In this document: piece after piece, positions 8,504 to 62,983 of the stretch
Layout of the letters: each line of letters begins with the position of its first letter
How positions within the stretch are numbered: the first letter of the stretch is position 1
NCBI GenBank assembly: GCA_963701855.1
Contig: CAVPBK010000005.1
Span: 1 to 64,000, forward strand
DNA from: Nitrospirota bacterium
GTDB taxonomy: Bacteria > Nitrospirota > Nitrospiria > Nitrospirales > Nitrospiraceae
Length of the DNA stretch: 64,000 bases
Reading direction: 5' to 3'
The notes under the pieces: generated by a model
What the model saw: only the letters and a program-made list of their open reading frames with translations
The model's database searches: none
Told to the model about the DNA's origin: nothing
Translations under genes and position numbers: made by a program

Positions 8504-10215
<1,712 letters not shown>

Positions 10216-10923: not shown

Positions 10924-11331
10924 TCATGGCCGCATCGATTCGTTCGTCTTAGTCAGTCCTGGAACGTGAGCCAAGGAGTCTCGTCCACAGTACTCCACCA
11001 ACAGATGCCGGCCAATCAAATCCGGCAGACTCGAACAATGCTTGAGACGCTCGTGCCCAGATACGGGGCCGCATGGTTCAAATTTGGCGCCAGCGAGAAG
11101 ATTGCCGACCTTCTCAAGCGAGCGCCGTACTGCAGGGCAAGACTCATCAGGCGGGCGATGACGTCGTATAAACCGATCAATTCAGAGGAACAGTCCGAAC
11201 CTTTCACGCGAAGAAAGATTTCGGCCGGCTGCTCGTCGTCATGCACGCTGATGTAGAGCGTGCGTTGGCCGGTGATGCGAACTTTTTGCGTGATGTGAGT
11301 GTGCCGGTGCGAGAGGGCGGCGGGTACTCAT
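10924..11331 (-). pseudogene. Stand-alone TSCPD-domain protein (class II ribonucleotide reductase C-terminal-like), two frameshifts
   Basis: ITQKVRITGQRTLYISVHDDEQPAEIFLRVKG...IARLMSLALQYGA / LEKVGNLLAGAKFEPCGPVSGHERLKHCSSLPDLIGRHLLVEY. RBS GGTGGAGG. Confidence 0.75.
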
Positions 11332-11399
11332 GCGGCCTCCACCAAAAGCTCGATGTTGAAGCTAAGTGGGTGTTCTCCGTTTGTTCCCTGGTTTGACGG

Positions 11400-11417
11400 G
11401 TCCCGTTGGGGACACCA
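11400..11417 (+). repeat. att core: tRNA(Glu)-like 3' end, copy 1
   Basis: GTCCCGTTGGGGACACCA, identical to 26493-26510. It comprises a T-stem 3' strand, an acceptor 3' strand, a discriminator and CCA. Confidence 0.85.
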
Positions 11418-11505
11418 CTTAATATGGGGAAACAACGCCATTCAGGTAGGGGGAGGTAAGATCCTTCTCCAGTAATTCTGAAGCTTTGCGTGCTATTCTC
11501 TTCAA

Positions 11506-12049
11506 CTTGTGATTCCCCGTAGCTTGCTACGGGGACAATCTTTTCTGGTACCCTCTGGAGTATGGCGGACCAGAGGAACGAGGCAGTCAGAAAGGGAGCG
11601 CACTGTGCGTGGCAAATCCACTACCATATTGTTTTTCCCGTGAAATACCGGAAATCGCTGTTGGATGAGGTGGTGACGACGATTATCCAGGAGACGGCGG
11701 CAGAGATCGCGGAACGGTTTCCGATCGAGATGGAGGCGATCGGGACGGACAAGAATCATATCCATCTGCTCTGCAGTGCACATCCGAAAGTGGCTCCAGG
11801 CCGGATTGTGCAGATATTCAAGAGCATCACGGCGCGGGAGATCTTTCGCCGAAAGCCCGCGGTGAAGCGGGTACTGTGGGGCGGGGAGTTTTGGACCGAT
11901 GGGTACTACGTGGCCACGGTAGGGGAACGGGCAAACTGGCAGACTGTCGAACGGTACGTGCAGCGGCAAGGGCAGCCTCAGGAAGATCTTCGTCAGCTCC
12001 AGATGTTTTAGTTCTGTGATACCCCGCAGCTTGCTGCGGGGAGCTTCAT
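11506..12049 (+). mobile_element. IS200-like element (TnpA only)
   Basis: Subterminal hairpins TCCCCGTAGC-TT-GCTACGGGGA (11514-11535) and CCCCGCAGC-TT-GCTGCGGGG (12022-12041). Lies after TTCAA and ends in TTCAT. Confidence 0.85.
11562..12011 (+). CDS. tnpA: IS200/IS605 Y1 (HUH) transposase
   Basis: YHIVFPVKYRK, NHIHLL (HUH), FKSITAR, FWTDGYY and YVQRQ motifs. Confidence 0.95.
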   Translation: MADQRNEAVRKGAHCAWQIHYHIVFPVKYRKSLLDEVVTTIIQETAAEIAERFPIEMEAIGTDKNHIHLLCSAHPKVAPGRIVQIFKSITAREIFRRKPAVKRVLWGGEFWTDGYYVATVGERANWQTVERYVQRQGQPQEDLRQLQMF

Positions 12050-12422
12050 TCACTTCATAACGCAACGGTGTAACAAGGAGCTTCCTCAGGATCTGCCTTG
12101 CCTGGGTTGTGTGGCGTTGGAGGAGGCTCTTCGCGTCGGCTACACGGGCATGAAGATCCCGTTTTAGCCGTACCGTGTCTAGTTCAATGACTCGGGCTGG
12201 TTTGGTCAGTGAATCCAGCTCAGTGATCAGTCATTTTTTCGGCATTCCTCTGACTTGAGTCTCGCCAGAAGGAGTTTCATATTTTCTCCACGAGCAATAG
12301 CATCAACGAGATGTTTCTCGCATGCTTCAATGAACGATATCTCCCTCTTTATAGCTGGCTGGCGGCTCAGCCATTGATCCTGACCCGAGCGTAGCTTCTC
12401 TAGAGCCTTCTCTACTGCTTCC

Positions 12423-12638
12423 TTCGCAGAGTTTGGGCGCAGCATGATCGTGGAGCACGTCAATGCTGGCCTGGAGCGCGTCAGGGCAGAGGGCAAGGTC
12501 TTGGGTCGGCCTCGCGTGAGTGCTGCAGTGGAGGCTAAGGTGATCGCGCTACGGGCCAAAGACGAGGGCATGCGGAAGATCGCACGGCCACTCGGCATTG
12601 GGAACTGCATCGTTCGGCGCATCGTGAATGCCGTGTGA
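12423..12638 (+). pseudogene. Small serine resolvase/invertase C-terminal fragment with HTH
   Basis: FAEFGRSMIVEHVNAGLERVRAEGKVLGRP...MRKIARPLGIG. Confidence 0.8.
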
Positions 12639-12906
12639 GGGCGCAATACCTTGGCCTGATTGCTGTGGTGGCTAATGCGCCGGTCTCCATCCCATGGCTG
12701 AAATCGAGAGGGGCAGAAGGGGAAATGACTGGTCAATCGCTGATCGTATACCCACTCAGCTTTTTCAGTATTTTTTATTTGGCTGCTCCGAAGAGACAGA
12801 CTGGCTGGTACCGATCTCCATGCAAAGAGCAAAGTGAGCAGCGCAAGATTGATAACCGTTCCGGACAGGCCGACCACGTGGAATTGAACCAAGTGAGTTC
12901 ACGTGG

Positions 12907-13644
12907 CTACTTGTAAGTATAGAGGTATCGAAGATGCTGCAGGTACTTGAACTGCTCCTTGAAGGAGAGCTTGCTCTTGCCGAAGAGCCTATTACTGAAA
13001 TGGATAGGAACCTCCGCCACTCGTCTGCAACGGCACTTGATGAGGAGTTCTAGCCCAATCTTGTATCCCATGGGGTTAAAGTCTCGCCCTGAGGCAAATG
13101 TCACGCGGCGTATAGCAATGAATCCACTCATAGGATCCTTCAAACTGCTTAGTGGCCTCGCAAGCAATGTCGCTACAAGGCTATTGATCCAGCGAAAGAG
13201 TCCCCAGCCATCGTCCGTCGAACCACCCTCGACGAAACGCGAGCCCACCACCATATCAGCACCACGGTCTAAAGCCTGAATCATATCAGGAATCTTTTCC
13301 GGCGGGTGGCTCAAGTCGGCGTCCATGATGATTAGAACATCGGCCTTTGATCGCCATAGACCATCCAAGACGGCCTGGCTCAGGCCCCGATCGGTCTTGC
13401 GCACAAAGAGCTGGACCCAGTCGAATTGAAGAGACTCGACAAGTTCCACGGTACCGTCGCAGCTATCATCATCCATCAGAAACAGCTCAAGGTCCAATCC
13501 GCTTGAGGAGCGTACGGCACCTAGACGCTTGGCTAGGTGGGGAATGTTCTCCATTTCACGAAAGGTTGGAACAACCACGGTCACTGTTGGACGCCGAGAT
13601 GCTTCGCTATTGGCTGAAGCGGATGTCAAAACTGGCTCAGTCAT
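12907..13644 (-). CDS. GT2 polyprenol-phosphate glycosyltransferase (DPM1/GtrB-like); C-terminal GtrA-like domain cut off by a TAG
   Basis: VVPTFRE, MDDDSCDGT, MDADLSHPP, VVGSRF and DPMSGF motifs. A GtrA-like QFHVVGLSGTVINL continues in frame after the stop. Confidence 0.85.
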   Translation of the reverse strand: MTEPVLTSASANSEASRRPTVTVVVPTFREMENIPHLAKRLGAVRSSSGLDLELFLMDDDSCDGTVELVESLQFDWVQLFVRKTDRGLSQAVLDGLWRSKADVLIIMDADLSHPPEKIPDMIQALDRGADMVVGSRFVEGGSTDDGWGLFRWINSLVATLLARPLSSLKDPMSGFIAIRRVTFASGRDFNPMGYKIGLELLIKCRCRRVAEVPIHFSNRLFGKSKLSFKEQFKYLQHLRYLYTYK

Positions 13645-13900
13645 GTTGACTTTTTTCTCAATATTGATTGCGGATTAATTCGACAAAAATAGCAGTGAGA
13701 TGCTGTTGGTGATCTGATAAAACTCCAGACGTTGCGGTGGGCCAGCAGATGTTGATCACTGGGTAGATCAAATTCCCAATTATACAATCAGATACGGCTC
13801 CCCGAGGGCTATATCATTTCTTCTCCCATGACTCTCCCTCGACCAAACTAGTATATTGTTTCGACGAAAACCAAAGCAAGGAGATGTCAGCACGACGACC

Positions 13901-15862
13901 ATGGCAACTTTCGTTCTTCTCCCCATCCGTGCCCTACTCTTTACATTTTACCTGACCCCGAGAGAAGGCTCCTGCTGGCGGCTTCGCGCTATGAATACCG
14001 CCGTGGTCTGGGGGGTGATTGTGGCCCTCAGTACCGAGGGTCTTAGCGCTTTCGGCATCCTGACGAGAGGTTGGGTATCTGCAGTCTGGGTTGCCATCGT
14101 GCTAGTAATTCTCGGTCTCTTAGGTTGGCGCACCTTGAAGGAAGGCCATGATCAACGCCCGGTCGCTAAGAGCGACGATCCGATTCCGAGGACCTACCGA
14201 CTAGCAATCTGGGCCGTGGGACTAGTGGTTGCACTGACCGGCTTTGTGGCGTTTATTGCCCCGCCGAACACTTGGGACTCGATGGCCTATCATATGGCAC
14301 GTGTTGCGCATTGGATCCAGAACGGCACAGTCAGACACTACCCGACTATCTACTTGCCCCAACTCTACCATCCACCCTGGGCTGAGTTTGCCATCACACA
14401 CCTCCAGATCTTGAGCGACAGTGACCGGTTTGCCAACAGCATCCAATGGCTCAGTATGGTCGGAAGCGTGTTTGGGGTCTCACTGATCGCCAAGTTGCTC
14501 GGAGCTGACTGCAGGGCACAGGTTTTCGCGTCTGTTCTGGCGGCTACGATCCCCATGGGAATTCTACAGGCGTCGAGCACACAGAACGATTTCGTGGTCG
14601 CGTTCTGGCTCGTGTGCTTTGTGGCGTACACCTTGCGGATTGTAACCAACAGATCAGAGCAGGAATCACAGGGTGTTGTCGCATGGGAGCCAGTGTTAGG
14701 GGCCGGAGCCAGCCTCGGGCTGGCGCTCTTGACCAAGGGAACCGCCTACATCTATTCGGCGCCATTCGTCGTTTGGCTCACGTTGATTATGGTGAAAAGA
14801 TGTCCTTGGGGAGCCCTGCGAGTTGGGCTCGTCATGGGAAGTCTCGTACTCCTGCTTAACGGTGGTCACTTTCTGCGCAACACGCAACTTTTCGGCGCAC
14901 CGCTGGCAAGCGGCGAAGAGAGCTACATGAACGAAATGTATACTCCTGCGGTCTTCGTCTCGAACGTCATGAGAAACGTCTCTCTTCATATGGGCACACC
15001 GTTCCAAATGATTAATATTGCAGAGGAAGAGGCGGTTCTTTGGCTGCATGATGCGCTGGGAGTTGCAGCCAACGATCCAAGAAGCAGCGGTTGGATGGGA
15101 ACCACGGAGTTTACGATTCGTGAGATGAACACCTTTGAGGATTCTGCAGGAAATCTATTCCACGCTGCGACAATAATCGTTTCGATTGCCGCATTTATGT
15201 TCCATAAATCGTTGCGGGCGAAACAGCATGTCGTCGGTTATCTGGTGTCCGTGTGCGTAACATTTATGCTGTTCAATGTGCTTCTCAAGTGGCAACCATG
15301 GCACAGCCGCCTGCACCTACCGCTATTCGTGCTGTTTGCCCCATTTGTTGCAATTGCCATCTCACAGTGGCGTACGCGCCTAGTCACCTACATCATGGCT
15401 TTTCTCCTCGTTGGTTCATTGCCGTGGGTGTTAGCCAACCAGACCAGGTTATTAGTTCCCGTGTTCAAACAGCGTAAAAGCATCCTCATAGAGAGCAGAC
15501 TTGACCAATACTTCGAGGGAAACGCCATATCTATGAAGGAACCCTATCTAGGGGCGGCTGCATTCGTGCAAGAACGGAACCTACAGGACATTGGCCTAAT
15601 GCTTCCCTATGACCCATTTGAGTACCAACTCTGGGTCATTCTGAAACAGGGCCGCACTGACGTGCGCCTGGAGCATATCGAGGTTAAAAATGTGTCCTCA
15701 GCAACGACCACGTTAGATTCATCAAGAAAGTTCTTGCCAGAAGCAATCATCCACGTTCAACGCAGGAATGAGCAACCACGAGCTGAACTCCGTACGGGAG
15801 AGCGCGTGTACACACGTGCTTGGTCCATGGACCGGGTGGAAGTATACGTCTTGGAGCCGTAA
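13901..15862 (+). CDS. Polytopic GT-C-fold glycosyltransferase (ArnT/PMT, GT39-like)
   Basis: Many TM helices with PPNTWDSMAYH, YHPPWAE, STQND and LALLTKGT motifs. Confidence 0.75.
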   Translation: MATFVLLPIRALLFTFYLTPREGSCWRLRAMNTAVVWGVIVALSTEGLSAFGILTRGWVSAVWVAIVLVILGLLGWRTLKEGHDQRPVAKSDDPIPRTYRLAIWAVGLVVALTGFVAFIAPPNTWDSMAYHMARVAHWIQNGTVRHYPTIYLPQLYHPPWAEFAITHLQILSDSDRFANSIQWLSMVGSVFGVSLIAKLLGADCRAQVFASVLAATIPMGILQASSTQNDFVVAFWLVCFVAYTLRIVTNRSEQESQGVVAWEPVLGAGASLGLALLTKGTAYIYSAPFVVWLTLIMVKRCPWGALRVGLVMGSLVLLLNGGHFLRNTQLFGAPLASGEESYMNEMYTPAVFVSNVMRNVSLHMGTPFQMINIAEEEAVLWLHDALGVAANDPRSSGWMGTTEFTIREMNTFEDSAGNLFHAATIIVSIAAFMFHKSLRAKQHVVGYLVSVCVTFMLFNVLLKWQPWHSRLHLPLFVLFAPFVAIAISQWRTRLVTYIMAFLLVGSLPWVLANQTRLLVPVFKQRKSILIESRLDQYFEGNAISMKEPYLGAAAFVQERNLQDIGLMLPYDPFEYQLWVILKQGRTDVRLEHIEVKNVSSATTTLDSSRKFLPEAIIHVQRRNEQPRAELRTGERVYTRAWSMDRVEVYVLEP

Positions 15863-16054
15863 ACTAGACTATCGGCAGCATGAAAAGCCTGCAATGTGCC
15901 CCGCCCTGCGAACCCACACCAGTTGGGACTTGAGGATTGGGCCTACTACGTGGTCGATTTGGGCTGCCTATGCGGCGGTGCAAACCTAGCAGGTTGCAGA
16001 AAAACCATTGTGCCACGGTGGAAATTTGATGACCTGCACGTCTGGGACACAAGG

Positions 16055-17288
16055 TGACGTCTCCCCGGAAAACGACGGCAGGTCAGAACTAGAGTACACT
16101 GACGGCTTCGGCGGTCCTCGACGAAAGGAGCGGATCGATGAAGCGGTCGAAGATTCTCGGAAGAGCAGATCGTCTATGCCATCCGCCAGGCCGAAAGCGG
16201 CACCCCGGTCGGCGACCTCTGCCGGCAGCTCGGGGTGAGTGACGCGACCTTCTACGCCTGGAAGAAGAAGTACGCGCACCTCGGCGTGAGCGAGCTGCGG
16301 CGGCTCCGGCAGGTGGAAGAAGAAAATAGCCGGCTCAAACGGCTCGTCGCGGACCTCTCGCTCGACAAGCACATGCTGTCGGAGGCCTTGCGAAAAAAAG
16401 TCTGAGGCCCGCACGCCGTCGAGAACTGGCCGCCTGGTTTCACGGGACGTTTCAGGTCAGTTGCCTGCGGGCCTGTCGGTTGGCGCAATTCGGTCGCGCC
16501 GCCTGGTATCGACGAAGCCGCGCGAAGGATCAATCCGCGTTGCGGATGCGCATTCGCGATCTGGCCCATGCCCGGCCTGCGGTTTGGGTCTCTGCGGATC
16601 TGGGTGCTGCTGCGGCGTGAAGGCTGGCTCGTGAATCGCAAGCGGGTGCGACGGCTCTATCGACTGGAGGGATTGCAGCTCCGCATGCGGGTGCGGCGAC
16701 GCAAGCATATCGCCCTGCATCGTGGCCCAGCCCCGATCCCGACCGGTCCTACGGAGCGCTGGAGCATGGATTTTGTGCATGATACCCTGGCGGATGGGCG
16801 GCCGTTTCGGATCTTGACGGTCGTGGATAACTGGAGTCGGCACAGTCCCATGCTAGAGGTCGGTTTTCGGATGTCGGGTGAGACGGTGGGCCAGGCCTTA
16901 GATCGGGTACTGACCGGCGTTGCAGGCCCCCGGTCCATCACGGTGGATCACGGGACGGAATTTCAATCGCGAGCGCTCGAAGATTGGGCCTATCGTCGGG
17001 GCGTGCAACTCGACTTCATTCGACCGGGTAAACCCGTGGAAAATGCCTTCATTGAATCGTTTAACGGACGCTTGCGGGACGAGTGTTTGAACGTGCACCA
17101 ATTCGCCTCACTCGCCGAGGCGCAGACCATCATCGAAGCGTGGCGGCTCGACTATAATCAGCGCCGCCCGCATAGCTCGCTCGGGCACCTGACCCCGAAC
17201 GAGTTTGTCGCACAACGTCAGGTGATCTGGACCGCCGAAGAAGCCGTCTGTTCTAGTTAAGAGCTGTCTCAGAACGGGACCAACGTCA
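16055..17288 (+). mobile_element. IS3-family element (IS407-like) with orfA ~16138-16405 and orfB to 17260; extra indels
   Basis: Ends TGACGT...ACGTCA and an A7G slippery site at the end of orfA. orfB has [16 protein letters not shown] and [23 protein letters not shown]. Confidence 0.9.
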
Positions 17289-17311
17289 GAAGCCAGAAGT
17301 TCTCCTATAGA

Positions 17312-17338
17312 AGTGTCTCCTTGACGGGGAAGCTTACA
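17312..17338. mobile_element. Orphan IS3-type terminal inverted repeat
   Basis: The reverse complement reads TGTAAGCTTCCCCGTCAAGGAGACAC. Confidence 0.45.
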
Positions 17339-17454
17339 GGAGGCGCATTCTAAAAGGGCTGCGAAGTAAGGTACAAGTACAAGAGGTAGGGAAACGCTGG
17401 TATTCCTGAGGCGCTACACTACGTCATTTTTTCACTGCGCGTTCGTTGTGGCCT

Positions 17455-18114
17455 TCACCGAAATGATTGGTTGAGATGCGCAATCGCGACCGACAGCGCA
17501 TGATCGAGAGAGGAGCGCAGCGCGGGTTGTAATTCGTAGTCGCTCGCATAGTCGCTCCACTCGCCGGACGGGGGAGTTGGTATGGCGGTGACGATGTCGT
17601 GGTACAAGACCTCGCCGCTCTCCACCGATATTATCTTGCTCGATACAACGAGAGGCGGCATCTTCCCATAGAAGCGAGCCAGCAGCCGGTCCCTCCAACT
17701 CGGCACGTCGATCCGAAAGAAGAGCATGCTATCCGCGCCGAGCAGCTTCCCGACTCGCATAGCACCGTCGTCCGCCACGCGCCCGGAGACCTGCAATCGC
17801 TGCTCATCCGTCAACGGCTCGATGTTGCGCCGATCGACGATCTTGATCCACGACCGCTGCATCTTGAGCTGGAAGGCCGCTTGCTCAAGCCGGCTGTACC
17901 CGTACGCCACGTCCTGTTCCGACGTGCGGGGATACCACACGGCTAAGCGCCGGACCTGCTGCGGGACTGGAAAACCACTCATCGACGAATCTACTGGGGC
18001 TTGATCGACGACGACGTGTGGCGTAGGCCGACACGCCGTTTGCGTCCAAAGACTAAACATCACGGCAGTGGCTGCGAGGAACGCCAACCGCTTCCTGCGA
18101 GGTCTGGTAGTCAT
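17455..18114 (-). CDS. CsgG/HfaB-like putative lipoprotein
   Basis: Signal ending TAC. IVDRRNIEPLTDEQRLQVSG...AMRVGKLLGAD...KIISVESGEVL. Confidence 0.6.
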   Translation of the reverse strand: MTTRPRRKRLAFLAATAVMFSLWTQTACRPTPHVVVDQAPVDSSMSGFPVPQQVRRLAVWYPRTSEQDVAYGYSRLEQAAFQLKMQRSWIKIVDRRNIEPLTDEQRLQVSGRVADDGAMRVGKLLGADSMLFFRIDVPSWRDRLLARFYGKMPPLVVSSKIISVESGEVLYHDIVTAIPTPPSGEWSDYASDYELQPALRSSLDHALSVAIAHLNQSFR

Positions 18115-18414
18115 AGTATCATGGTACACCTGCAGACAGGGGATAACCACAACCCTGCGGATAGGGGGGGAAGCGGCACATAGTGCGTGGCAGTCACCGT
18201 GATCCATGACATGGAATATGGGTAGTAAAAGCAGCCAACACTGCGGGAGCAACCACCCAAGAGCGACCGCTATATATTCTGGTGCGGTCGGTACGCGCAA
18301 GCGAGGTTTGGTGGATGGCAGGGGTTCCAACCGTCATTTCCCGACGCGCTTCGCTTTGACATGCAAGGAGTTGCGTTGATGGCGGCCTGACCGCCGATAC
18401 CCAGCTGCTTCCAC

Positions 18415-18860
18415 TTACTTCTTCCGCCACCCCCACGGCGGCACCGGTTGCGGATCAGCCCACAAGCCCTTCTTGGTCTCTCGTGCTTCCTTCTCCAGTC
18501 CTCCGAGTACCGTATCGCCCTGCGCATACTTCCAGTAGCACCAACACCAACCCTGCGTGACCAGTTCCTGATTGTCGTTTGTTCCATCCGACAGGAATAC
18601 CTATCCAAAGGTGCGCTTGTACTTGTCGTAGCCGTGAGTCTAGAGCGTGACGTCTCTCCCGAAGGCGAGGTCAGAGGCAGCCTGCTTGGCCTTCTGCCCG
18701 ATCGCTTGGCCTTTCTCAGGGTTGTCGATGCCGCTCAAGCGGATGCATTCAGTATGGTGGCCGTTCAGGACTTCGATTGTGTCGCCGTCGAGGACGGAGA
18801 CGACAGAGCCGGAGAAGTCCACCGCGAGTAGGACTGAGAAGGAGGAAATGAAGAAGCCTG
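18415..18860 (-). pseudogene. Near-full-length thermonuclease (SNase) pseudogene, copy 3
   Basis: VVSVLDGDTIEV...IRLSGIDNPEKGQ...DKYKRT...GWCWCYWKYAQGDTVLGGLEKEARETKKGLWADPQPVPPWGWRKK*, with two in-frame stops. Confidence 0.88.
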
Positions 18861-19209
18861 TAATGGGGCAATAATATACGAGACTCAGGAGAATAATGTC
18901 CTGTGGATAAGCCGGTTTTGCGTTTGTCAACCGATTCTCCTGAGGATAAATCGGGGACAAGAAAATATAGTGGGCCTAGGGGGGCAACTACTTCTTGTGG
19001 CGATTCTTCTTGGTGGCCTTCGACGGAAGCGAGGACTTGGGAACGGAGAGTACCGTATTCATGGCCGCCTTCAACCGCTCAAATGGGGTTTGTGGGGTCG
19101 GCATGCGCGGACTATAATACTTTCTTGCTGGTGGGCCTGCAATGACTCCTACTCAGCAGATTGCACGGGTGGCTCATCCTAGCACTTCACGAAAGCGTCT
19201 CCTCGCGAT

Positions 19210-20186
19210 TGGACTTCCCAGCCATTTGCGGACACCGTGAAGCCCGTTTCGCCACGGCTTCAAACGCCTCCGGACGTACACCGCGCAGATGGCGGTGTCG
19301 ACGGGTGCGAGTGTCGAACCTCTCGATGTCATCGGCGATCTCGGCATTGGCAATCGCACGCGTCTTGTAGATTCGCTTTTTGATCCGCTCCTTCTTCACG
19401 CTGCTAAAAAACGATTCGGCCACTGCGTTCTCCCAGCCGTGTCCAGGCCGGCTCATACGGGGCTCACGATGAGGCTCATGGCAGAAGCGCCGCCACGCAT
19501 CGCTACCAAATTGCGATCCTTGATCGGAACGAATCAGTGTTTCTTAGGCTTACGTTGCCGCACGGCCATGAGGATCGCGTCCCGCACGAGGTCTCAAGCC
19601 CTCGTGAGGGTTGTTGACCAGCCGACAATTCGGCGTGAGTATCGGTCACTCACGACGGCAAGAGAGCGCCCGCCTTCCCACGTGCGCCCGTACGTGATGT
19701 CGGTGACCCAGACTTGGTTCGGCCGTTGGACGGGAACACCTCGGTGCAGCGTATCGGGGGTACGGAGTGACGTATGGCCTCTGGCGTCCCGGGGGGCGCG
19801 GTAGCTGTGTCGGGCGTTCAGGGTATTGGCCCTCATCATCCGAGCGACACGAGGCGTGCAACAGGTCTCGCCCGCGTCTCGCAAATCGAGAACGATACGC
19901 AGGGCACCGGAGACGCCGGGGCTCGCCGTATAGGCCGCGCGGATCAAGCCGCGCACCCGCTGATCCTCCAACGCTCGATCGGAGAGAGGGGTACGCAACC
20001 CTTCATCGAACCCGCTGCGCGACACGTCTAGGAGACGGCACAGTACTGCCGTCTCCAACTCACGACGCTGTGCCTTGATGAACGCGTACGTCACTCGGAT
20101 ACCCTGCGATCTGCGCCGATTGCTCCTAGGTCCTCCCTTGTTCGAACGACCACCCCAAAGGTGTCCGTTAAAATCTGGAAAGTCCA
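19210..20186 (-). mobile_element. Internally deleted, degenerate IS3-family element
   Basis: IRs TGGACTTCCCAGCCATTTGCGGACACC and TGGACTTTCCAGATTTTAACGGACACC. Motifs VWVTDITY and ENAVAESFFSSVKKE. orfA is mostly missing. Confidence 0.85.
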
Positions 20187-20233
20187 GTGTGTGGAACTGG
20201 GGAATCCCCTAGTGCTACTCGAATAACGTACTA

Positions 20234-21048
20234 GGGCCTGTTAACACTAACGCAAGCCATCGACGATCAACGCGAAATTGATAAACGCAACGAACAGGAC
20301 ATCGAGTTTTTCAAACCGCGTGAAGATGCGCCGAAATCCCTTGAGCCGGCGGAACAGTCGTTCTATCTCATTGCGTCGCTTATACATGGCTCGATCGTAC
20401 TCCCATGGCATGAGTCGATTTTGCTTGGGTGGCACCACGGGGACATACCCTAAATCCAAGGCCAGTTGCCGCGTCTCGTCGCCTTCATACGCGCGATCCA
20501 TCAATAGGTGGATCGCGCGCGGCATGCTCCCTAACCGTTGCAGCAGCTTTCGCCCCTCGGGTGCATCGTGGGCCTGGCCCGGGGACAGGGCAAACGTTAG
20601 CGCCGTTCGAGCATCCGCGGCAACCATATGAATCTTGGTCGTCCATCCGCCGCGGGACTGGCCAATGGCTTGCGGGCCGTTTTTTTTAACGCCCCCGTGC
20701 CATCCGGATGGACCTTGACGATGGTACGGTCCAAGGCGACGGCTTCGATCTTCACGCGGATGATCTGCGTGTGTTGCAACTGTGCAAATACGCGATCCAG
20801 CACCCCGCTCTTGGACCAACGATTCATGCGAGTATAGATGGTGTGCCAGTTGCCGAACCGCTTGGGTAGCCCGCGCCATTTGCAACCCTGCTCGGCGACA
20901 TACAAGATCGCGTTGAGAACGTGCAGATTGTCGAGGGTTACGTTGCCGCGTTGCGTCGGCAAACACGGCTCGATTTGGCGATACTGTGCGTCGGTGATTT
21001 CCATGTGCGCAGTATCTCATATAAATGGCCTTTAGTGTTAACACGCCC
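20234..21048 (-). mobile_element. IS5-family (IS427-like) element, apparently intact, two-ORF transposase
   Basis: TIRs GGGC(C/G)TGTTAACACTA, flanked by TA. orfA 20597-21004 and orfB to 20247 are joined at an A8 slippery run. Motifs GWTTKIH, DRAYE and RNEIERLFRRLKGFRRIFTRFEK. Confidence 0.92.
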
Positions 21049-21195
21049 TAGCAACTAAACGCTTAGACAGAAGGTTGAGGAGGGACCTGCTGGAGAGCCG
21101 TATACTTTCATTGCCTCATTCCATAGGAATTGGCAGGTCTTTCAATGGGAGGCTGTGGCGCGATCGTGTCATAATGAGCGATTCCCAGCTACTAG

Positions 21196-21318
21196 TGGTG
21201 GTATCGAAAGTGTGCGCCGAGGGATACGGTGCTGGAAGAGTTAGAGAGGGAAGCACGACAGGGGCGGAAAAGCTTGTGGGCTGCTCCACAGCCGGTGCTG
21301 CTGTGGGAGTGGCAGCAT
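21196..21318 (+). pseudogene. Thermonuclease (SNase) C-terminal remnant, copy 4
   Basis: WWYRKCAPRDTVLEELEREARQGRKSLWAAPQPVLLWEWQH. Confidence 0.75.
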
Positions 21319-21397
21319 GTTGGACCACTGGTTGTAGACGTGGGCGACCTCATGCTTGGCGAGCATGTCACGATAGAGGAGTTCGAGTTAGCCAACA

Positions 21398-22147
21398 TCA
21401 TTGTGGTGCACCGCTCCCGCCGCCCGCCGCTTTCCATGATCCCATCAGTGATCTATGGTGGGCTCCAGACGCGTTGGTCCAGGTGGCGGCAATCGGACTA
21501 ATCGCTCCATGAATCAAATATTGCGCCTGAAAAGTATGTGCTACTCGGGCTATTTCTGTGAATCCTGTTCCAGCTGTGACCCTTTCCATATCGCTTGTCT
21601 GAGTAACACCGAAAATGAAATCGCCACTTGCCGACGTCGTCGCGGCTGTCGAAGTTACGGCATTCGCGCCGGTACCAGGCGTAGCCTGCTCGTTGTAGTC
21701 CTTTGATGGGGCCATCACGTCGAACGGGCTACTCGTCGCAGCTCCTTTGATCTCAAAGACGATCATTTGAGCGTCTCTCGCGTGGCTATCAAAGAAGTTG
21801 CAGGTGACGGTATGGCTGGCGCTCGTGGCGATGTTGACCGCATGGAATGCCAAAATTAATTCTCCCGAACCGTTCGCAGGCGAACCAGAAATGTGGGAGA
21901 AACTGTTGGATTTGTTATCCAAGCAGGTAATTGGTGTGGAATTGTCGCGGATGACGTGTATCGCGACACCGAGCGTACTCCCCGCTGTTGGGGTCGGTGT
22001 AATAGAGTCGGTAGTAATTGATAAGTTTATGGATCCATTGCCATTGCCAGCATCCGTTGCAATGCCACCGAGCGAGGTGGCGGGCCAGCTCTGGACAGGC
22101 AAGAAGAGCGCAAGGATGAGACTAAGTAGATTCGTGAGTCGTGTCAT
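21398..22147 (-). CDS. Secreted beta-rich hypothetical protein
   Basis: RBS GGGAGG, signal peptide MTRLTNLLSLILALFLPVQSWP and an S/T/G/A-rich body. Confidence 0.55.
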   Translation of the reverse strand: MTRLTNLLSLILALFLPVQSWPATSLGGIATDAGNGNGSINLSITTDSITPTPTAGSTLGVAIHVIRDNSTPITCLDNKSNSFSHISGSPANGSGELILAFHAVNIATSASHTVTCNFFDSHARDAQMIVFEIKGAATSSPFDVMAPSKDYNEQATPGTGANAVTSTAATTSASGDFIFGVTQTSDMERVTAGTGFTEIARVAHTFQAQYLIHGAISPIAATWTNASGAHHRSLMGSWKAAGGGSGAPQ

Positions 22148-22200
22148 GAAATTGCCTCCCGTACAACCAACTCCACGCCAGAGATTGCGCAACGAGATTA

Positions 22201-23038
22201 GAACCTATATCAAAATTGTTGACAGCATGAAGTTACGTACGTATAAGTCTCGCTCATGTTTCGCCTGCGCGACGACCAATGGGAACCGGATTCGGGAACA
22301 TTTCCCCGAAGAACACATTCCGGACAGCCGCCCTGGCCGCAAGCCGGTTGCCACCGCGGGCGGTGTTGGAAGCGGTGCTCTGGATTCTGAACACCGGTGC
22401 GCAATGGCATCTGCTGCCCCAATGCTATCCGAATTACAAAACCGTCCATCGCCGGTTTCAACAGTGGTGCCAACGCGAGGTGCTGCGCGAGATCCTCACG
22501 CAGTTGGCCAATACGTTGCGCGACGAAGGGGCGATCGACGAACGTGAGAGTTTCATCGACGCGACGTTTGCTGCGGCCAAGGGCGGCGGCGACGCCGTAG
22601 GCCTCACGAAACGCGGCAAAGGCGTGAAAATCCTCGCGATTGTGGATCGCAGGGGCTGCCGCTCTCGGTGAGCACGCATGCGGCCAATCATCATGAGGTC
22701 ACCTTGGTGCAACTCAGTTTCGACTTCTACATGCTGGAGGCCAAGCCCGAGCATCGTCATTGGCGATCGGGCATATGACAGTGATGGGCTTGATGATGAC
22801 CTCAAGCAGGACGGGGTGAATCATGATTGCCCCGCATCGCTCCACCCGCAAACTCAAGACCCAGGATGGGCGCCACTTGCGCCGCTATCAACGCCGCTGG
22901 CTCGTCGAACGGTTCTTTGCCTGGCTCCAATGGAAGCGGCGCTTGCTGATCCGCTGGGAATATTATGCCTCCAACTTCTTAGGATTTGTGCAACTCGCCT
23001 GCATCACGATGCTCCTCAAGCGATTTTGAGATAGGTTC
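22201..23038 (+). mobile_element. IS5-family element with multiply frameshifted transposase
   Basis: TIRs GAACCTAT(A/C)TCAAAAT, flanked by TA. Motifs LWILNTGAQWHLLP, FIDATF, GDRAYDS and [11 protein letters not shown]. Confidence 0.9.
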
Positions 23039-23355
23039 TAGTGTGCGTTCGGCTGTCCAGCCTTGAAGTCGTACCGTGTTTGTGTTGCGTAGGTCTGGAT
23101 CGTCACTTCTCCTACACTTTACAGACAGCACATCTCAAAGTTTTCGGGCATCTGATTCAGATACCGGCGGAGCTGGTTTGCGGTTGGTGGTCGATGGAAC
23201 GTCGAGTCATTCCCCACGGTTCTGAACAGAGGCTCGTTATTGTATTGATACTGGCAGTATTCGTCCAGGCACTCCTGATAAAACTTGCACTTGGCATATT
23301 TCCGTGTGGAGCCTCACATACGTCCCCCTCCTACAACACCCCCCCGCGAGGCCCC

Positions 23356-23829
23356 TTGCCATTCGCGGTTCGACCCCACCACCGCTTCCCCTTGCAATGC
23401 TCTGTCAACTATAACGCTGGTCCCTTCTACGGACACGGCACAATCTGGAATCTCTCATGCACCGGCTGGCGACTCTCCGACGATCTGCCGATGCGACCAG
23501 GGGAACCCCTCTTGTTGACCGTCGCCCTCCCGTCTGATTACTAATGCTCTCCCTCATTCGCCACACCCACGACCTCACCGATTGGGGGTCACCCCCCCAC
23601 TTCTGAGGAATGGCCCAATACCCCTTTCCCACAGTATCCTGTGCATTATGGGACAAGGGATACAACAGACCTCGTGGTATGAATAAGCAACGCGTCGAGA
23701 TCCATGAAGCCGTTGTTAGCTGGTCGAGCGGTCAAGAGTTTTCCACAGAGAACCTCGCGATCGAACCACACACGCCCATCAACAGCACTTTGTGAAACGT
23801 TTAGCACAAGAGCCGCTGGATTTGATTGA
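23356..23829 (+). pseudogene. PilZ-domain gene split by a ~150-bp insertion
   Basis: RPHHRFPLQCSVNY...GTIWNLSCTGWRL...LTVALP, then an insert at 23533-23681, then NKQRVEIHEAVVSWSSGQEF. Confidence 0.7.
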
Positions 23830-24247
23830 CGTGCAGTCCGGGCTTACTTGGGCGAGAGTGGCATCGTTCGCTTCGAAGATACCTACGGTCGTAGCTGGAG
23901 ATCCAACGCGTCCGCAGTCGGCGAACTTCTAAATAATCTGTCCCGAGAAGTATAGTTAGCGGCACGTTCCAGCAGGTCCTCGATTCACCCCAAGCCCTGA
24001 CATGTCGGGTCTTGCCACTTTTGCTACCAAGGACTGCCGGGGGGAGAGCCTGGATTGGGGGTCGCCGGGGAAACTTTGGCTTCGGCGTCAGGAACGGGAG
24101 GTTCCTCACATGAACCGTAGCTCAATTAGCTTAGCTCACCACGTGACTTAGAAATCGGCGGAAATTTCCCTTATCTTATTGGCTTTTCGCGCCAAGTCCT
24201 GAAGAATAGTGGGTTCTGTAAACTTGGCGAGCACCGCGAGGGGGTGA

Positions 24248-25708
24248 ATGGTGAAGAGATTCCTTCAGGCGATTGTCGTTTGGCTTTCCGGCAGCGCGCT
24301 GGCCCGCCAGCGAGCGTGGATGAGGTTCGCCATCATTCTGGCATTCCTGGGTACTTTGACGGTTGCGGGATGTTCGTCGTCATCTTCTCCGAGCGCGCAG
24401 CCCTCAGTTCCAGTTCCGAGCGCGGAACCTGTGTATCCTGTAAAACCTGGATCGACAGGCCGTTATCTCTTGGATCAAAATGGTGTTCCGTTCCTGATCC
24501 TCGGCGATTCGGCGCAAGCGATGATCGGCAATCTGAACGAAGCGGACGCCGAACTGTTCTTGTCCAACCGGAAACCCCAGGGGTTCAACACGGTATGGAT
24601 TAATTTGCTGTGCGCAAGCGGTACGGGATGCAACGCGGACGGGACCACCTTCGATGGCATCGCACCATTTACGGTCGGAAACGATTTGTCCACCTACGAT
24701 TTGTCTGCCCCCAATGAGGCGTACTTTGCCCGCGCGGACCGCATGCTTCAGTTAGCAGCAAAATATGGCTTCCTTGTCGTGCTGGACCCGGCTGAAACCA
24801 TCAGTTGGCTCAGTGTCTTGCGAAGAAACAATGACCTGGCCAAGGCCCGTGCCTACGGCCGGTGGCTCGGTATGCGTTACAAGGACTTCCCCAATATCAT
24901 GTGGATGAGCGGCAACGATTTCCAGAGCTGGCGCACCCTGAGCGATGATAGGCTGGTGCAAGAGGTTGCGCTGGGCATCAAGGATACCGATCCCCACCAC
25001 ATCCACACAGTCGAATTGGATAACCCCCTCTCGAGTTCGCTCGACGACATCTCTTGGGCGCCGATTATCTCCCTCAATGCAGCGTACACCTATAACCCCA
25101 CCTATGCCGAAGTGCTCCACGCGTACAACCAGTCCGCTTCCGTGCCCGTCTTCCGGGTGGAGTCCTTTTACGAGTCGTATGGCGGTATCACGCCGGCGAC
25201 ATTGCGACGCCAGGAGTACTGGACTTCCTTAAGCGGTGCAACCGGGCAGATTGCTGGAAATGTTTACACTACTCTTTTCCCGAACGGCTGGAAGAACCAG
25301 CTCAATACGCCCGGTGCCGTGCAGTTCGGGCATATGAAGACCCTCTTCGAACCGCGGGCCTGGTACGAACTCGTGCCGGACCAGGCCCACACCGTGGTGA
25401 CCGCCGGCTACGGCACCTTTTCATCCTCAGGCAGCATCGACGCCAATGACTATGTGACGGCCGCGCGGACGTCCAACGGGAAGTTGGTGATGGCCTATGT
25501 GCCTTCCGCCCGAACCGTCACGGTCGACATGAGTCAACTGAGCGGATCCGCGACCGCGCGCTGGTACGATCCGGTCGTGGGGACATTCACGAGCATCACG
25601 GGCTCCCCGTTCGCAAACACGAGCTCGAACAACTTCACGACGCCCGGGCTCAATGCGGGCGGGGACGAGGATTGGGTGCTCATTCTGGAGGTTCGACTGA
25701 CGGAGTGA
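24248..25708 (+). CDS. DUF4038 (apiosidase/GH140-like) lipoprotein with C-terminal collagen-binding-like domain
   Basis: Lipobox VAGC. RYLLDQNGVPFLILGDSA, PNEAYFARAD, YKDFPNIMWMSGND and ARWYDP...DWVLIL. Confidence 0.8.
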   Translation: MVKRFLQAIVVWLSGSALARQRAWMRFAIILAFLGTLTVAGCSSSSSPSAQPSVPVPSAEPVYPVKPGSTGRYLLDQNGVPFLILGDSAQAMIGNLNEADAELFLSNRKPQGFNTVWINLLCASGTGCNADGTTFDGIAPFTVGNDLSTYDLSAPNEAYFARADRMLQLAAKYGFLVVLDPAETISWLSVLRRNNDLAKARAYGRWLGMRYKDFPNIMWMSGNDFQSWRTLSDDRLVQEVALGIKDTDPHHIHTVELDNPLSSSLDDISWAPIISLNAAYTYNPTYAEVLHAYNQSASVPVFRVESFYESYGGITPATLRRQEYWTSLSGATGQIAGNVYTTLFPNGWKNQLNTPGAVQFGHMKTLFEPRAWYELVPDQAHTVVTAGYGTFSSSGSIDANDYVTAARTSNGKLVMAYVPSARTVTVDMSQLSGSATARWYDPVVGTFTSITGSPFANTSSNNFTTPGLNAGGDEDWVLILEVRLTE

Positions 25709-25819
25709 CTTCAGTGGCGAGCGCACATCCGTTATCCTGTGGCATCAGACTGATGGCACCAAGTAGGCCTGGAACACTACTGACGCTTCGATCATTGGGG
25801 GGTGGGTTAGATCGGCAGC

Positions 25820-26203
25820 TGGCAGTTTGTGAAATTCTCTCCGACTCGTAACCTTTGAGGTGTCGAAGAACGTTAAATCCGAGTTTTGCGATTTGAGTTC
25901 CGGGAGAGTTCGCTGCGCGGAGCGGACGTTAATCAAAAGCGGCTGTTCACATGCAGAACGTTTGTGGCTTTGTGCAAGACAAACATCCGCTGCGGCTGAT
26001 GTGCGAAATGGTGAAGACGGCGCTGAGAAAATGGTCGAACTGTTTGCCAGATGTATGCGGACTGCGGGCTCAAGTCCATTGTGCCGGAGCAACTGCTGCG
26101 AGGGCTGCTGTTTCAAGCGCTCTACTATAGGTTGAGGAGCGAGCTGCGGCTGTGCGAGCAGCTGAGTCATAACCGCTGGTTCATGGGCATCAGCCTGGCC
26201 TAG
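25820..26203 (+). mobile_element. IS5-like transposase 5' remnant
   Basis: Frameshifted RGADVNQ...HPLR...SIVPEQLLRGLLFQALY...RSELRLCEQL...RWFMG. Confidence 0.6.
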
Positions 26204-26213
26204 GAGCCGTGGG

Positions 26214-26400
26214 AGTAACCTGCACGGGCAAATTCTGTCCAGGTTGAATAATAGACTGGACCGCAACCAGGGTGGTCATTCCCAAGAAACGGTCTAGGCC
26301 CGAAGAGATTTTCAGCATCTGCGGCCGGTCGAACCGGTGACTAGCAACGGGCTGGCGGTGCTTGACGCCTGTCGGAAGCTCGGGATCACCGAGCAAATGT
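26214..26400 (+). mobile_element. IS3 orfA 5' remnant
   Basis: ...NGLAVLDACRKLGITEQ is homologous to orfA at 573-851. Confidence 0.6.
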
Positions 26401-26487
26401 GCGGGCGGGTAAGGCGGGTACTCATGCGGCCTCCACCATCCCTTGGAACGGGATTCCCCAGAGATAAAGGGTGTTTTGGCAAATCCC

Positions 26488-26510
26488 TTCAAGTCCCGTT
26501 GGGGACACCA
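26488..26510 (+). repeat. att core (attR-like): tRNA(Glu)-like 3' end, copy 2
   Basis: TTCAAGTCCCGTTGGGGACACCA includes the T-loop. No tRNA 5' half lies upstream. Confidence 0.85.
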
Positions 26511-26714
26511 ATCCTACCGTTTATTTCCGCTATACCCGACTCGCTGTTTCGGCGGTTTCATTCCGTTGAGTTTGTCGTGTGAGCTGGATAGACTAGAACA
26601 TTCATACAGGATAGCCGCGCGAGCCCTGGCTATCCACGTCACGCGTTACTCGCATATCTTGCTCGTCACGCGCCATGGTGCGTGGCCTGCCGAACTTTTC
26701 CAGCGACCTGTTCC

Positions 26715-27194
26715 ATGCCTGAACGATCTATCACACCCCTCATTATAGTTGCGCTGCTACTGGGAACGTGGCTGGCCCTTCGTTCCATTGAATCTTCTTC
26801 AGTGACGACGGCGCCTGTCCAATCGGTGCCATTGCTTGCCCCTGGCATGGTTCCGCTGGTCACTGGAGACGAACCGATCACAGAGATCTTTACAAGGGCC
26901 GGCTGCGCGGTGTGCCACAGCGTTCCAGGTATTCCGGGGGCTGATGGGCGCGTGGGGCCGCCTCTCCTATTAGGTGCCACGGGGCCTGTGCGATTGGCCG
27001 ATCCGGCGTACCGAGGTCATGCGAAGACGGTGCACGAGTACGTGATCGAATCGGTTCTCGAACCGGAACTGTTTGTCGTGCCTGGATATCCGGCCGGTAC
27101 GATGCCGACTTGGTATGGCATGAAACTCAGCGCTCTTGCGCTGGAGAGGATTGCGTCGCATCTTGAGCGGCAAGGGGCTACTGCGGTGCAGTAA
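26715..27194 (+). CDS. Monoheme cytochrome c, membrane-anchored
   Basis: N-terminal TM segment, CAVCH heme motif, GRVGPPL and a distal TMP methionine. Confidence 0.85.
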   Translation: MPERSITPLIIVALLLGTWLALRSIESSSVTTAPVQSVPLLAPGMVPLVTGDEPITEIFTRAGCAVCHSVPGIPGADGRVGPPLLLGATGPVRLADPAYRGHAKTVHEYVIESVLEPELFVVPGYPAGTMPTWYGMKLSALALERIASHLERQGATAVQ

Positions 27195-27429
27195 GCGCAG
27201 CGATCCTCACCGGATTGGTAATGAGGCTCGTGATGGTGACGGGGCTAGACAGAATTATTCATGAAGATTCGTTGCGAAAGCGTGCAGTCGCGAAGAGAGA
27301 CGCGCACTCAGAGGCGTGAAGCCCTAATGCATACTTGTGCAGTATGTTGAAGGTCCGAATGGCGAGACTGCCTGTCATTGCTGCACATACGCGCTTGCAG
27401 CAGAAGTGTCATGGATAATGCGGGCTTAC

Positions 27430-62154: not shown

Positions 62155-62983
62155 TCAAAAAAGGCTCACGACAAAGCGCGCCGACACCAACAGTAGAAAT
62201 AACCCGAAGGCGATCTCCAGCTGTCGTTTCGACAGCCGGTGCGCCAGCACCGCCCCATAGGGGGCCGTGAAGCGTGAGACCGGCGCCATGATCGCGACGC
62301 CGAGCAGCGAGACGTCGCCAATCGAGAATGGCGGCAGCAGCGCCATCTTGGGCCAGCCCGCCAGGGCGAGGCCGATGGTGGCCGCAATCGCGATCTGCAC
62401 GCCGAGACTGGAGGAGGTTGCGACCGCGTTATGCAGCGGCTTGCCGTAGAACGGCTGGATCATGTTGGAGACCGAGCCGCCCGCCACGCCCATCAGCGAC
62501 GAGGTCAGCCCGATCAGAAAGCCAAAGCCGATCATCGCCGGGCGACCGGGAAAGTCGGTGGCGATGATCCAACTGTCGCGGCCAAACAAGAGCTTGATGG
62601 CGATGACCGTCATCGTCACCATGAACACGACCTTAAACACCGCGCTCGGCGCGAAATAGGCGATCACCGAGCCCCCCCGCGACACCGGCCACCGCCGGGA
62701 CGGCCCACTGCCTGATCACGTCGTTGAGTACCATGCCTTTGGCGCTATGCGTGAGGTAGGAGTGGATCGTGGTCGGGATGATGATCGCCATCGAGGTACC
62801 GACGCAGAGGTGCATGCGGACCTCCTCGGGCACGCCGAGGATTCGAAACATCTCGTACAGCACGGGCACGATGATGGCGCCGCCGCCGATGCCGAACAGG
62901 CCGGCGAGGATGCCGGTGGCGACTCCAGCAACCACGACGGCAGCAACGAGCAGCGCGATTTCGCCGAGTGGCATCCCCACCAC
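62155..62983 (-). CDS. Sulfite exporter TauE/SafE family, frameshifted at a G7 run (~62675)
   Basis: AGLFGIGGGAIIVP, GTSMAII, SLMGVAGGS and HNAVATSS across two frames. Confidence 0.8.

Follow-up and report, generated by a model that had tools for sequence, protein, structure and literature searches.

A large serine recombinase gene that appears to run across its own attP at tRNA-Glu in Nitrospirota, with a conserved Ala-Ala tail that integration would remove

Serine integrases are prized as genome-engineering tools, and the natural timing or limiting of their activity is known for few of them. The attP sites of phiC31, Bxb1 and A118 lie outside the int gene, and we know of no integrase of these types that targets a tRNA gene. 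Genes for large serine recombinases (LSRs) that span attP are already known, with DsiB as the example and Mx8 as its counterpart among the tyrosine integrases. The passages on dsiB in McMurdie et al. 2011 (PMC3146451) describe Dehalococcoides islands that the LSR DsiB inserts at the tmRNA gene; dsiB always overlaps attL there, may be fully functional only on the circle, and might have its full protein encoded by that circular form. The Islander paper (2014), where it treats integrase genes, cites Mx8 (Tojo et al. 1996) and SSV integrases as extending across attP and, where it treats serine integrases, gives those targeting tRNA genes as unknown. In mycobacteriophage BPs, according to the sections on tagging in two reports (PMC4557955, PMC3694055), integration removes an ssrA-like tag from the repressor, the substitution A135E is stabilizing, and Int is tagged as well. 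Here we describe a window of 64,000 nucleotides, the first 64 kb of contig CAVPBK010000005.1 (C5) of the Nitrospirota bacterium assembly GCA_963701855.1, which we read as the likely decayed outer part of a tandem island array at the 3′ end of tRNA-Glu(TTC). The islands would have been moved by an LSR whose gene runs across its own attP, and the part that appears new, as judged from intact relatives, is a conserved Ala-Ala (AA) end that integration removes.

Two exact repeats, of 26 and 18 bp, each occur twice in the window (Table 1), and the segments between them are unrelated and measure 55 and 54 nt, as an earlier note on this DNA had recognized when it described identical 26-bp ends with unrelated middles. 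The 26-mer has two copies in the genome, both in the window. The 18-mer, searched at up to two mismatches, has six copies compared with none for its reversed control, a recurrence that exceeds chance. It agrees at all but one base with the 3′ end of tRNA-Glu(TTC), whose only gene in this genome lies on another contig (C12:71533-71610), and the tRNA-derived core proposed earlier is thereby borne out. No tRNA gene was found in the 64-kb window, and a search of the whole window for further degenerate copies of this att core at up to four mismatches returned none but one chance-level match at 62911. Each core is flanked by an arm, A at the inner junction and B at the outer one. The two window arms are 100% identical over 26 bp and unrelated elsewhere, and both homologous junctions on C12 depart from the 26-mer at several positions; the identity might stem from gene conversion or from very strong constraint.

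The organization of the element is best seen in intact relatives. Using the C-terminus of the C12 recombinase as the query, we searched 201 genomes of the family and obtained matches in 16 of them (no locus was drawn from the unpublished genomes G053, G006 and G076, which enter a tally and a place list only, and nothing claimed here depends on them). At 11 of these 16 family loci, the LSR gene reads into a real antisense tRNA-Glu. ARAGORN confirmed tRNA-Glu(TTC) at 10 of 11 loci checked: seven attL junctions of relatives, two such junctions re-fetched at greater length, and locus L044, which holds this genome's tRNA-Glu. A contig end truncates the remaining locus. The intact LSR genes encode 553-578 amino acids with Resolvase, Recombinase and Zn_ribbon_recom domains. 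PF07508 and PF13408 are present in the relatives' LSRs, and the LSR of G140, which starts ..YTRKST.., matches PF00239 at 2.2e-21; the catalytic domain is also found in the homologue P0083. We then rebuilt attP: on the contig of each element we located the other copy of the core and translated the arm next to it in the phase of the element's own LSR. In all ten Nitrospiraceae elements with an intact LSR, the frame is open through the element's own arm and runs 15-23 codons past the core-encoded residues before a stop; eight of these tails end in AA and two in VA or GA, and all three phases occur. The core is read in three phases (VSPTG, GVPNG and WCPQRD) by three LSR lineages, each arm being open in the phase of its own LSR, and in the tandem array of G180 two neighboring elements with different phases each fit their own arm. 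Three of five degraded elements are likewise consistent with their own arm, the exceptions being G151 and the window.

A wider sample of 80 named loci, drawn from all species genomes, gave a similar picture. ARAGORN placed an antisense tRNA against 39 of the 80 LSRs, mostly Glu-TTC but also Glu-CTC, Arg and Ala, and a second core lay within the fetched flank at eight loci, where six tails end in AA (Nitrospira, Acidobacteriota), one ends in TA and one, from a broken LSR, is unrelated. When the intact-LSR elements of Nitrospiraceae and Acidobacteriota were pooled, the frame was open through the element's own arm in 17 of 17, with tails extending about 12-26 residues past the core-encoded ones; every tail ends in Ala and 14 end in Ala-Ala. 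The integrated-form tails end instead in ..LLP, ..LPA, ..NGI or ..AMS. Natural free-form tails are encoded beside the distal core in G069, G140 and Nitrospira sp. RSF1, among others, and Nitrospira moscoviensis also has a homologue of the enzyme (P0032). These results indicate that attP lies inside the LSR gene and that integration exchanges the C-terminal tail. They also bear out, in the relatives, three proposals made from the window: that the att core sits inside the 3′ end of the recombinase gene (ten intact Nitrospiraceae LSRs and seven wider-sample elements), that the frame stays open across a rebuilt attP at tRNA genes, and that an antisense-tRNA tail takes the place of the AA-ending one upon integration.

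The AA end of the free-form tail is far above background. Of 38 distinct non-tRNA arms, 26 carry an 18-36-codon frame ending in AA, and 30 a frame ending in Ala, whereas mononucleotide shuffles gave an AA end in 35 of 7600 (0.5%). In the genome as a whole, 39 of 2749 open reading frames (ORFs) of at least 200 codons end in AA (1.4%). The two residues are encoded by twelve different codon pairs among the arms and are kept in front of TGA, TAG and TAA stops, of which TAA and TAG cannot overlap a start. The 12 arms without AA comprise six homologous tails (three ending in VA, the others in GA, AT and AV) and six unrelated sequences. At the protein level, among the 120 homologues listed of 1177 matches, 78 end in antisense-tRNA peptides and eight of the other 42 end in AA; full-length representatives at 50% clustering (n = 102) include at least 31 antisense-tRNA ends and 17 AA ends. 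Because the sampled genomes are related, the AA counts are not independent events. Nevertheless, the same Ala(-Ala) end is reached in three phases, in two phyla and by arms of at least three unrelated types.

The window itself holds remnants of such elements. A minus-strand remnant beside the inner core, the C-terminal third of an LSR, matches residues 331-516 of the LSR of a congener (G171, locus L036; tblastn E 5e-22). The earlier identification of an integrase stands; the phage BPs, cited there, has a tyrosine integrase, and the match rules out a tyrosine integrase here. The catalytic N-terminal resolvase domain is gone from this remnant, the recombinase domain and the zinc ribbon appear to be missing as well, and the coiled coil and the C-terminal region are what is left. 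The 550-bp IS200/IS605-type insertion sequence (IS) that lies within it has copies of 99% identity at C1:189404-189953 and C12:65934-66483 and was evidently active recently. The LSR-homologous frame runs into the core as ..SGVPNGT, and the remnant thus also reads through its core. It does so in the GVPNG frame and not as VVSPTG, as had been suggested, since the latter frame is closed by a TAA (11421-11419) two codons ahead. Both tail frames described earlier are present, VSPTG...GMVEAA* from 26508 to 26422 and ...LLVEAA* ending at the TGA at 11330-11328. The one extra base noted earlier at the inner junction is not decay. Arm A is natively read in the WCPQRD frame of other LSR lineages; it carries one base more because LSR lineages read the core in different phases. 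A programmed frameshift in arm A was rejected together with decay, given the three LSR phases and the fit of each arm to its own LSR. Homologues of arm A occur in the WCPQRD frame in the genome's own C12, G180, G171 and G354 and in the GVPNG frame in G140, G176, G357 and G107; those of arm B occur in the own C12, G041, G069, G180, G206, G131, G368 and G040. The earlier pairing of the remnant with the arm at 26413-26492 joined different frames, and an attempt to rebuild attP from the remnant and arm B failed on phase (phase 1 versus phase 2). We also dropped a leader, riboswitch or 5′-UTR reading of the 99-nt repeated unit, the arms being protein-coding tails conserved at the amino-acid level. 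As read against the relatives, each window arm is the orphaned tail of a different LSR lineage, the two lineages differing in the frame in which they read the core, and the window's copy of the element is dead, a fossil.

Behind the tail stop lies the start of a gene with a TSCPD domain. The overlap of this stop with an ATG, which the earlier note had pointed out, is real in the window (TGA 11330-11328, ATG 11331-11329), but the gene behind arm A is a pseudogene: its PF12637 domain (29.5 bits) is out of frame with ATG 11331, and a three-frame reading shows the gene to be frameshifted twice, first in roughly the opening 12 codons and again near 11125. Behind arm B, an ATG at 26425 opens a five-codon TSCPD stump (MSTRL). 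The window domain shares its frame with the tail ORF, behind the TGA of the latter; read-through of this TGA was ruled out because TSCPD begins with the overlapping ATG in intact relatives; the window copy is therefore simply frameshifted. Window positions 10979-11417 are 81% identical to C12:55679-55238, and the paralogue there is an intact TSCPD gene of 135 codons that starts at the overlapping ATG (PF12637 3e-12, 47.1 bits). Across the family, a stop/start overlap (ATGA, GTGA or TTGA) occurs in 12 of 30 arms, an intact TSCPD gene follows the arm in G140, G171, G354 and the own C12, and stumps stand behind four further arms, so the proposed overlap holds in part of the family. GGAGG and the ATG lie inside the window's 26-bp repeat; the GGAGG is not conserved among arms. 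We read the shared 26 bp as the conserved stretch in which the tail ends, its stop follows and TSCPD begins. The smallest intact element, the 6.6-kb L038 (G140:C1:2877131-2883727), carries behind TSCPD a tail-completion/Neck1 homologue (phrog_5, 2.6e-13) and also a small terminase subunit (phrog_4044, 7.3e-35); no other virion genes were found in it. From this gene content, L038 looks like a phage satellite that would redirect its helper's packaging.

Based on these observations, we propose, as a reading with about an even chance of being right, that tandem islands at the tRNA-Glu 3′ end carry an LSR gene across attP, that the AA tail is lost on integration, and that AA acts as a degron. In the free circle, the LSR would end in a tail of about 12-26 residues past the core-encoded ones, supplied by the element's far arm and almost always closing in Ala-Ala. 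After integration, the gene would enter the antisense tRNA and end in ..FEPVLLP, ..GVPNGI or ..LNPCYCLERAMS depending on the frame, leaving the old tail codons orphaned at the other end of the island. By analogy with ssrA, the AA end would be a ClpXP-type degron that shortens the life of the free-form integrase and that is lost on integration; LSR translation in the circle would in addition be coupled through the ATGA to the TSCPD gene behind it. The host has ClpX (clpX match 654 bits), and its tmRNA tag ends in ..LAA. An AlphaFold2 model of the natural free-form homologue P0083 has a mean predicted local distance difference test score (pLDDT) of 87, with the last 30 residues below 50, and the tail is thus probably flexible. 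More tentatively, and in our view with somewhat less than an even chance, recombination itself may serve as a post-translational switch throughout a large tRNA-targeting LSR clade (Nitrospirota, Acidobacteriota and beyond), in which the free form would carry both a degron and a coupling to the first operon (TSCPD, neck, small terminase), insertion would strip both, and excision would restore both. If this is true, the lifetime of the enzyme would report the DNA state of its own gene.

Several observations weigh against the degron proposal. Conservation extends beyond AA, as F-x-G-x-V/I-x-A-A or LSF-x-I-D/E-LLV-x-AA, which exceeds the need of a minimal degron and suggests a different or additional function. 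Just before AA (position -3), most tails carry Glu, Val, Lys or Ala and few carry Leu, the residue found in the ssrA tag, and three of the 17 rebuilt tails lack the penultimate Ala. The alignment behind the P0083 model mixes free and integrated tails, which may partly cause the low pLDDT of its tail. The layout for TSCPD coupling is missing from many arm-B and other arms. The window remnant, in the GVPNG phase, fits neither of the window arms (VSPTG and WCPQRD), and the copy is therefore not rebuildable. Finally, the advantage of an unstable free form combined with a stable integrated form is not obvious.

The conservation past the last two residues, seen across arms and phyla (F-x-G-x-V-x-A-A, LSF..LLV.AA), is what would be expected if the tail were a working part of the enzyme. 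Only the free form, with its native tail, would then be able, or properly controlled, to carry out attP × attB integration, and the swapped form would be inactive or biased toward excision, giving built-in directionality or a self-limiting switch. We consider this unlikely, though worth serious attention. In the model, the tail is disordered and separate from the folded part of the protein. The middle of the tail varies greatly, and three mutually unrelated types of arm occur in a single bacterial family. The one invariant is the terminal Ala(-Ala), the feature on which a C-terminal degron depends. A working role of the tail in the enzyme and the degron proposal are mutually compatible.

Alternatively, the arm could be conserved for the sake of the downstream gene, as the ribosome-binding site and start of TSCPD, or as attP sequence bound by the recombinase, with Ala-Ala as a by-product. 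The GGAGG and ATG within the window's 26-bp repeat and the stop/start overlap in 12 of 30 arms would fit such an origin. We nevertheless judge it improbable, given the twelve synonymous codon pairs, the retention of AA in front of TAA and TAG stops and in Acidobacteriota elements with other neighbors, and the lack of conservation of the GGAGG among arms. Moreover, serine-integrase att sites span about 50 bp in all, and the tail end lies 70-85 bp from the core, beyond the expected att site. It is harder still to credit that the tails have no function, being open leftovers beyond attP whose Ala-Ala reflects coincidence or shared descent. Many members are indeed closely related, which makes the counts non-independent, and some arms end in VA, GA, TA, AT or AV; yet elements of two phyla, with no fewer than three unrelated kinds of arm and with three phases, reach the same end, and the shuffle control (0.5%) and the genome background (1.4%) already disfavor this explanation, which we regard as very improbable.

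The site of the array was delimited with an unoccupied relative. In the congener G327, attB is unoccupied: the tRNA-Glu there is intact, and the DNA immediately behind it shares 87% identity with window positions 26513-27217. Everything inserted at tRNA-Glu therefore ends, on the outer side, at position 26510/26511; compared with this site, the insertion appears precise. On C12, tRNA-Glu comes first, then 16 kb, arm A with a core, 31.5 kb, and arm B with a core, and C12 and C5 would be parts of a single array, about 100 kb long, behind tRNA-Glu. The 15 kb between the window cores is full of IS fragments or copies and accessory genes, and is probably composite because the phase of the remnant fits neither arm. 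A further copy of the tRNA-Glu core, near the start of contig C11 (C11:1432-1449), may be another junction of the array; its VSPTG-frame tail, ..FSRKWHS, equals that of the database recombinases P0005 and P0044.

Directly beside the same tRNA-Glu, at C12:69874-71468 (minus strand), there is a tyrosine integrase with its DUF6538 N-terminus and its Phage_integrase body in two frames, and two unrelated integrase families therefore use one tRNA gene in this genome. A repeat of about 400 nt (window 18414-18819 and 21196-21313) has at least 20 diverged copies (70-77% identity) spread over many contigs, with several in the island array of C12, and its two window copies form a 118-nt inverted pair (18426-18543 and 21196-21313). 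An IS3-type element of about 1.06 kb with rve domains (window 9000-10057) has at least nine more copies in the genome at 77-99% identity.

Table 1. Coordinates of the repeats, recombinase remnants and neighboring features in the window.
Feature	Position	Strand	Remarks
Att core, copy 1	11400..11417		tRNA-Glu(TTC) 3′ end, 17/18 bases
Att core, copy 2	26493..26510		Outermost (attR-type) boundary of the tRNA-Glu island array
26-bp repeat, copy 1	11319..11344		Tail-ORF end (V-E-A-A-stop), overlapping ATG, first four TSCPD codons (MSTR)
26-bp repeat, copy 2	26413..26438		Identical to copy 1
Arm A, putative orphaned last LSR codons (WCPQRD frame, ..PLSFNIELLVEAA)	11328..11399	-	Stop TGA 11330-11328
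Arm B, putative orphaned LSR tail codons (VSPTG frame, ..WGIPFQGMVEAA)	26422..26492	-	Stop TGA 26424-26422
Distal LSR piece (..FRITGEGSYLPL..)	11418..11500	-	Enters the core in the GVPNG frame
IS200/IS605-family insertion	11501..12050	+	tnpA 11562-12011; Y1_Tnp 1.7e-34 (Pfam); splits the LSR remnant
Proximal LSR piece, coiled coil and C-terminal region	12051..12442	-	tblastn against the G171 LSR: residues 331-401 and 402-516; frameshift near 12229
TSCPD pseudogene	10924..11331	-	ATG 11331-11329; PF12637 E 9.1e-07 on 11016-11327
Chromosomal flank	26511..27250		Adjoins tRNA-Glu in the unoccupied relative G327

For the window alone the matter is minor, because its copy is a fossil. Beyond the window, tRNA-gene targeting emerges from these data as the habit of a widespread serine integrase clade, and the limits of tandem islands can be conveniently traced by the orphaned tail codons. 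If the proposal is right, a degron removed by integration would be a simple form of self-sensing control that might be reusable in synthetic circuits. Our search of the literature, with subscription journals largely outside its coverage, returned no serine-integrase degron and, beyond DsiB, no attP within a serine integrase gene at tRNAs.

The domain composition of these enzymes, Resolvase, Recombinase and a zinc ribbon with a coiled coil, is that of phiC31, Bxb1 and A118. As in the DsiB islands, going by the passages on dsiB cited above, the LSR acts at a tDNA 3′ end, a direct repeat measures about 20 bp, and islands are arrayed in tandem downstream of the gene. Unlike in those islands, where the target is tmRNA, the target here is tRNA-Glu (Arg and Ala in relatives), and the overlapping part, which those passages judge divergent without naming a conserved end, could here be recovered as a tail ending in Ala-Ala. 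The 6.6-kb element of G140 showed no DsiA partner. With the Mx8 integrase (IntP/IntX) and those of the SSV type, as they are portrayed in the passages mentioned, our elements share an attP inside the integrase gene and a C-terminus that is altered or split by integration into a tRNA gene, but those enzymes are tyrosine recombinases and ours are serine recombinases. To our knowledge, no degron has been proposed for integrases of the Mx8 or SSV type. The putative degron resembles ssrA-type degrons in its terminal Ala-Ala, free carboxylate and apparently flexible tail, and in a host with ClpX and a tmRNA tag ending in ..LAA; it differs from the ssrA tag at position -3, where Glu, Val, Lys or Ala usually takes the place of Leu. 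Flynn et al. are said to have grouped ssrA-like C-terminal ClpXP degrons as 'C-motif 1' in 2003. The BPs integrase is of the tyrosine type. In the sections on BPs considered here, attP also lies inside an ORF, the penultimate Ala matters and the integrase is C-terminally tagged too; the ORF crossed by attP there is the repressor gene and the integrase keeps its tag, whereas here it is the gene of the serine integrase itself, with no repressor involved. By this analogy, the LSR switch would work like the BPs system and is not a member of it.

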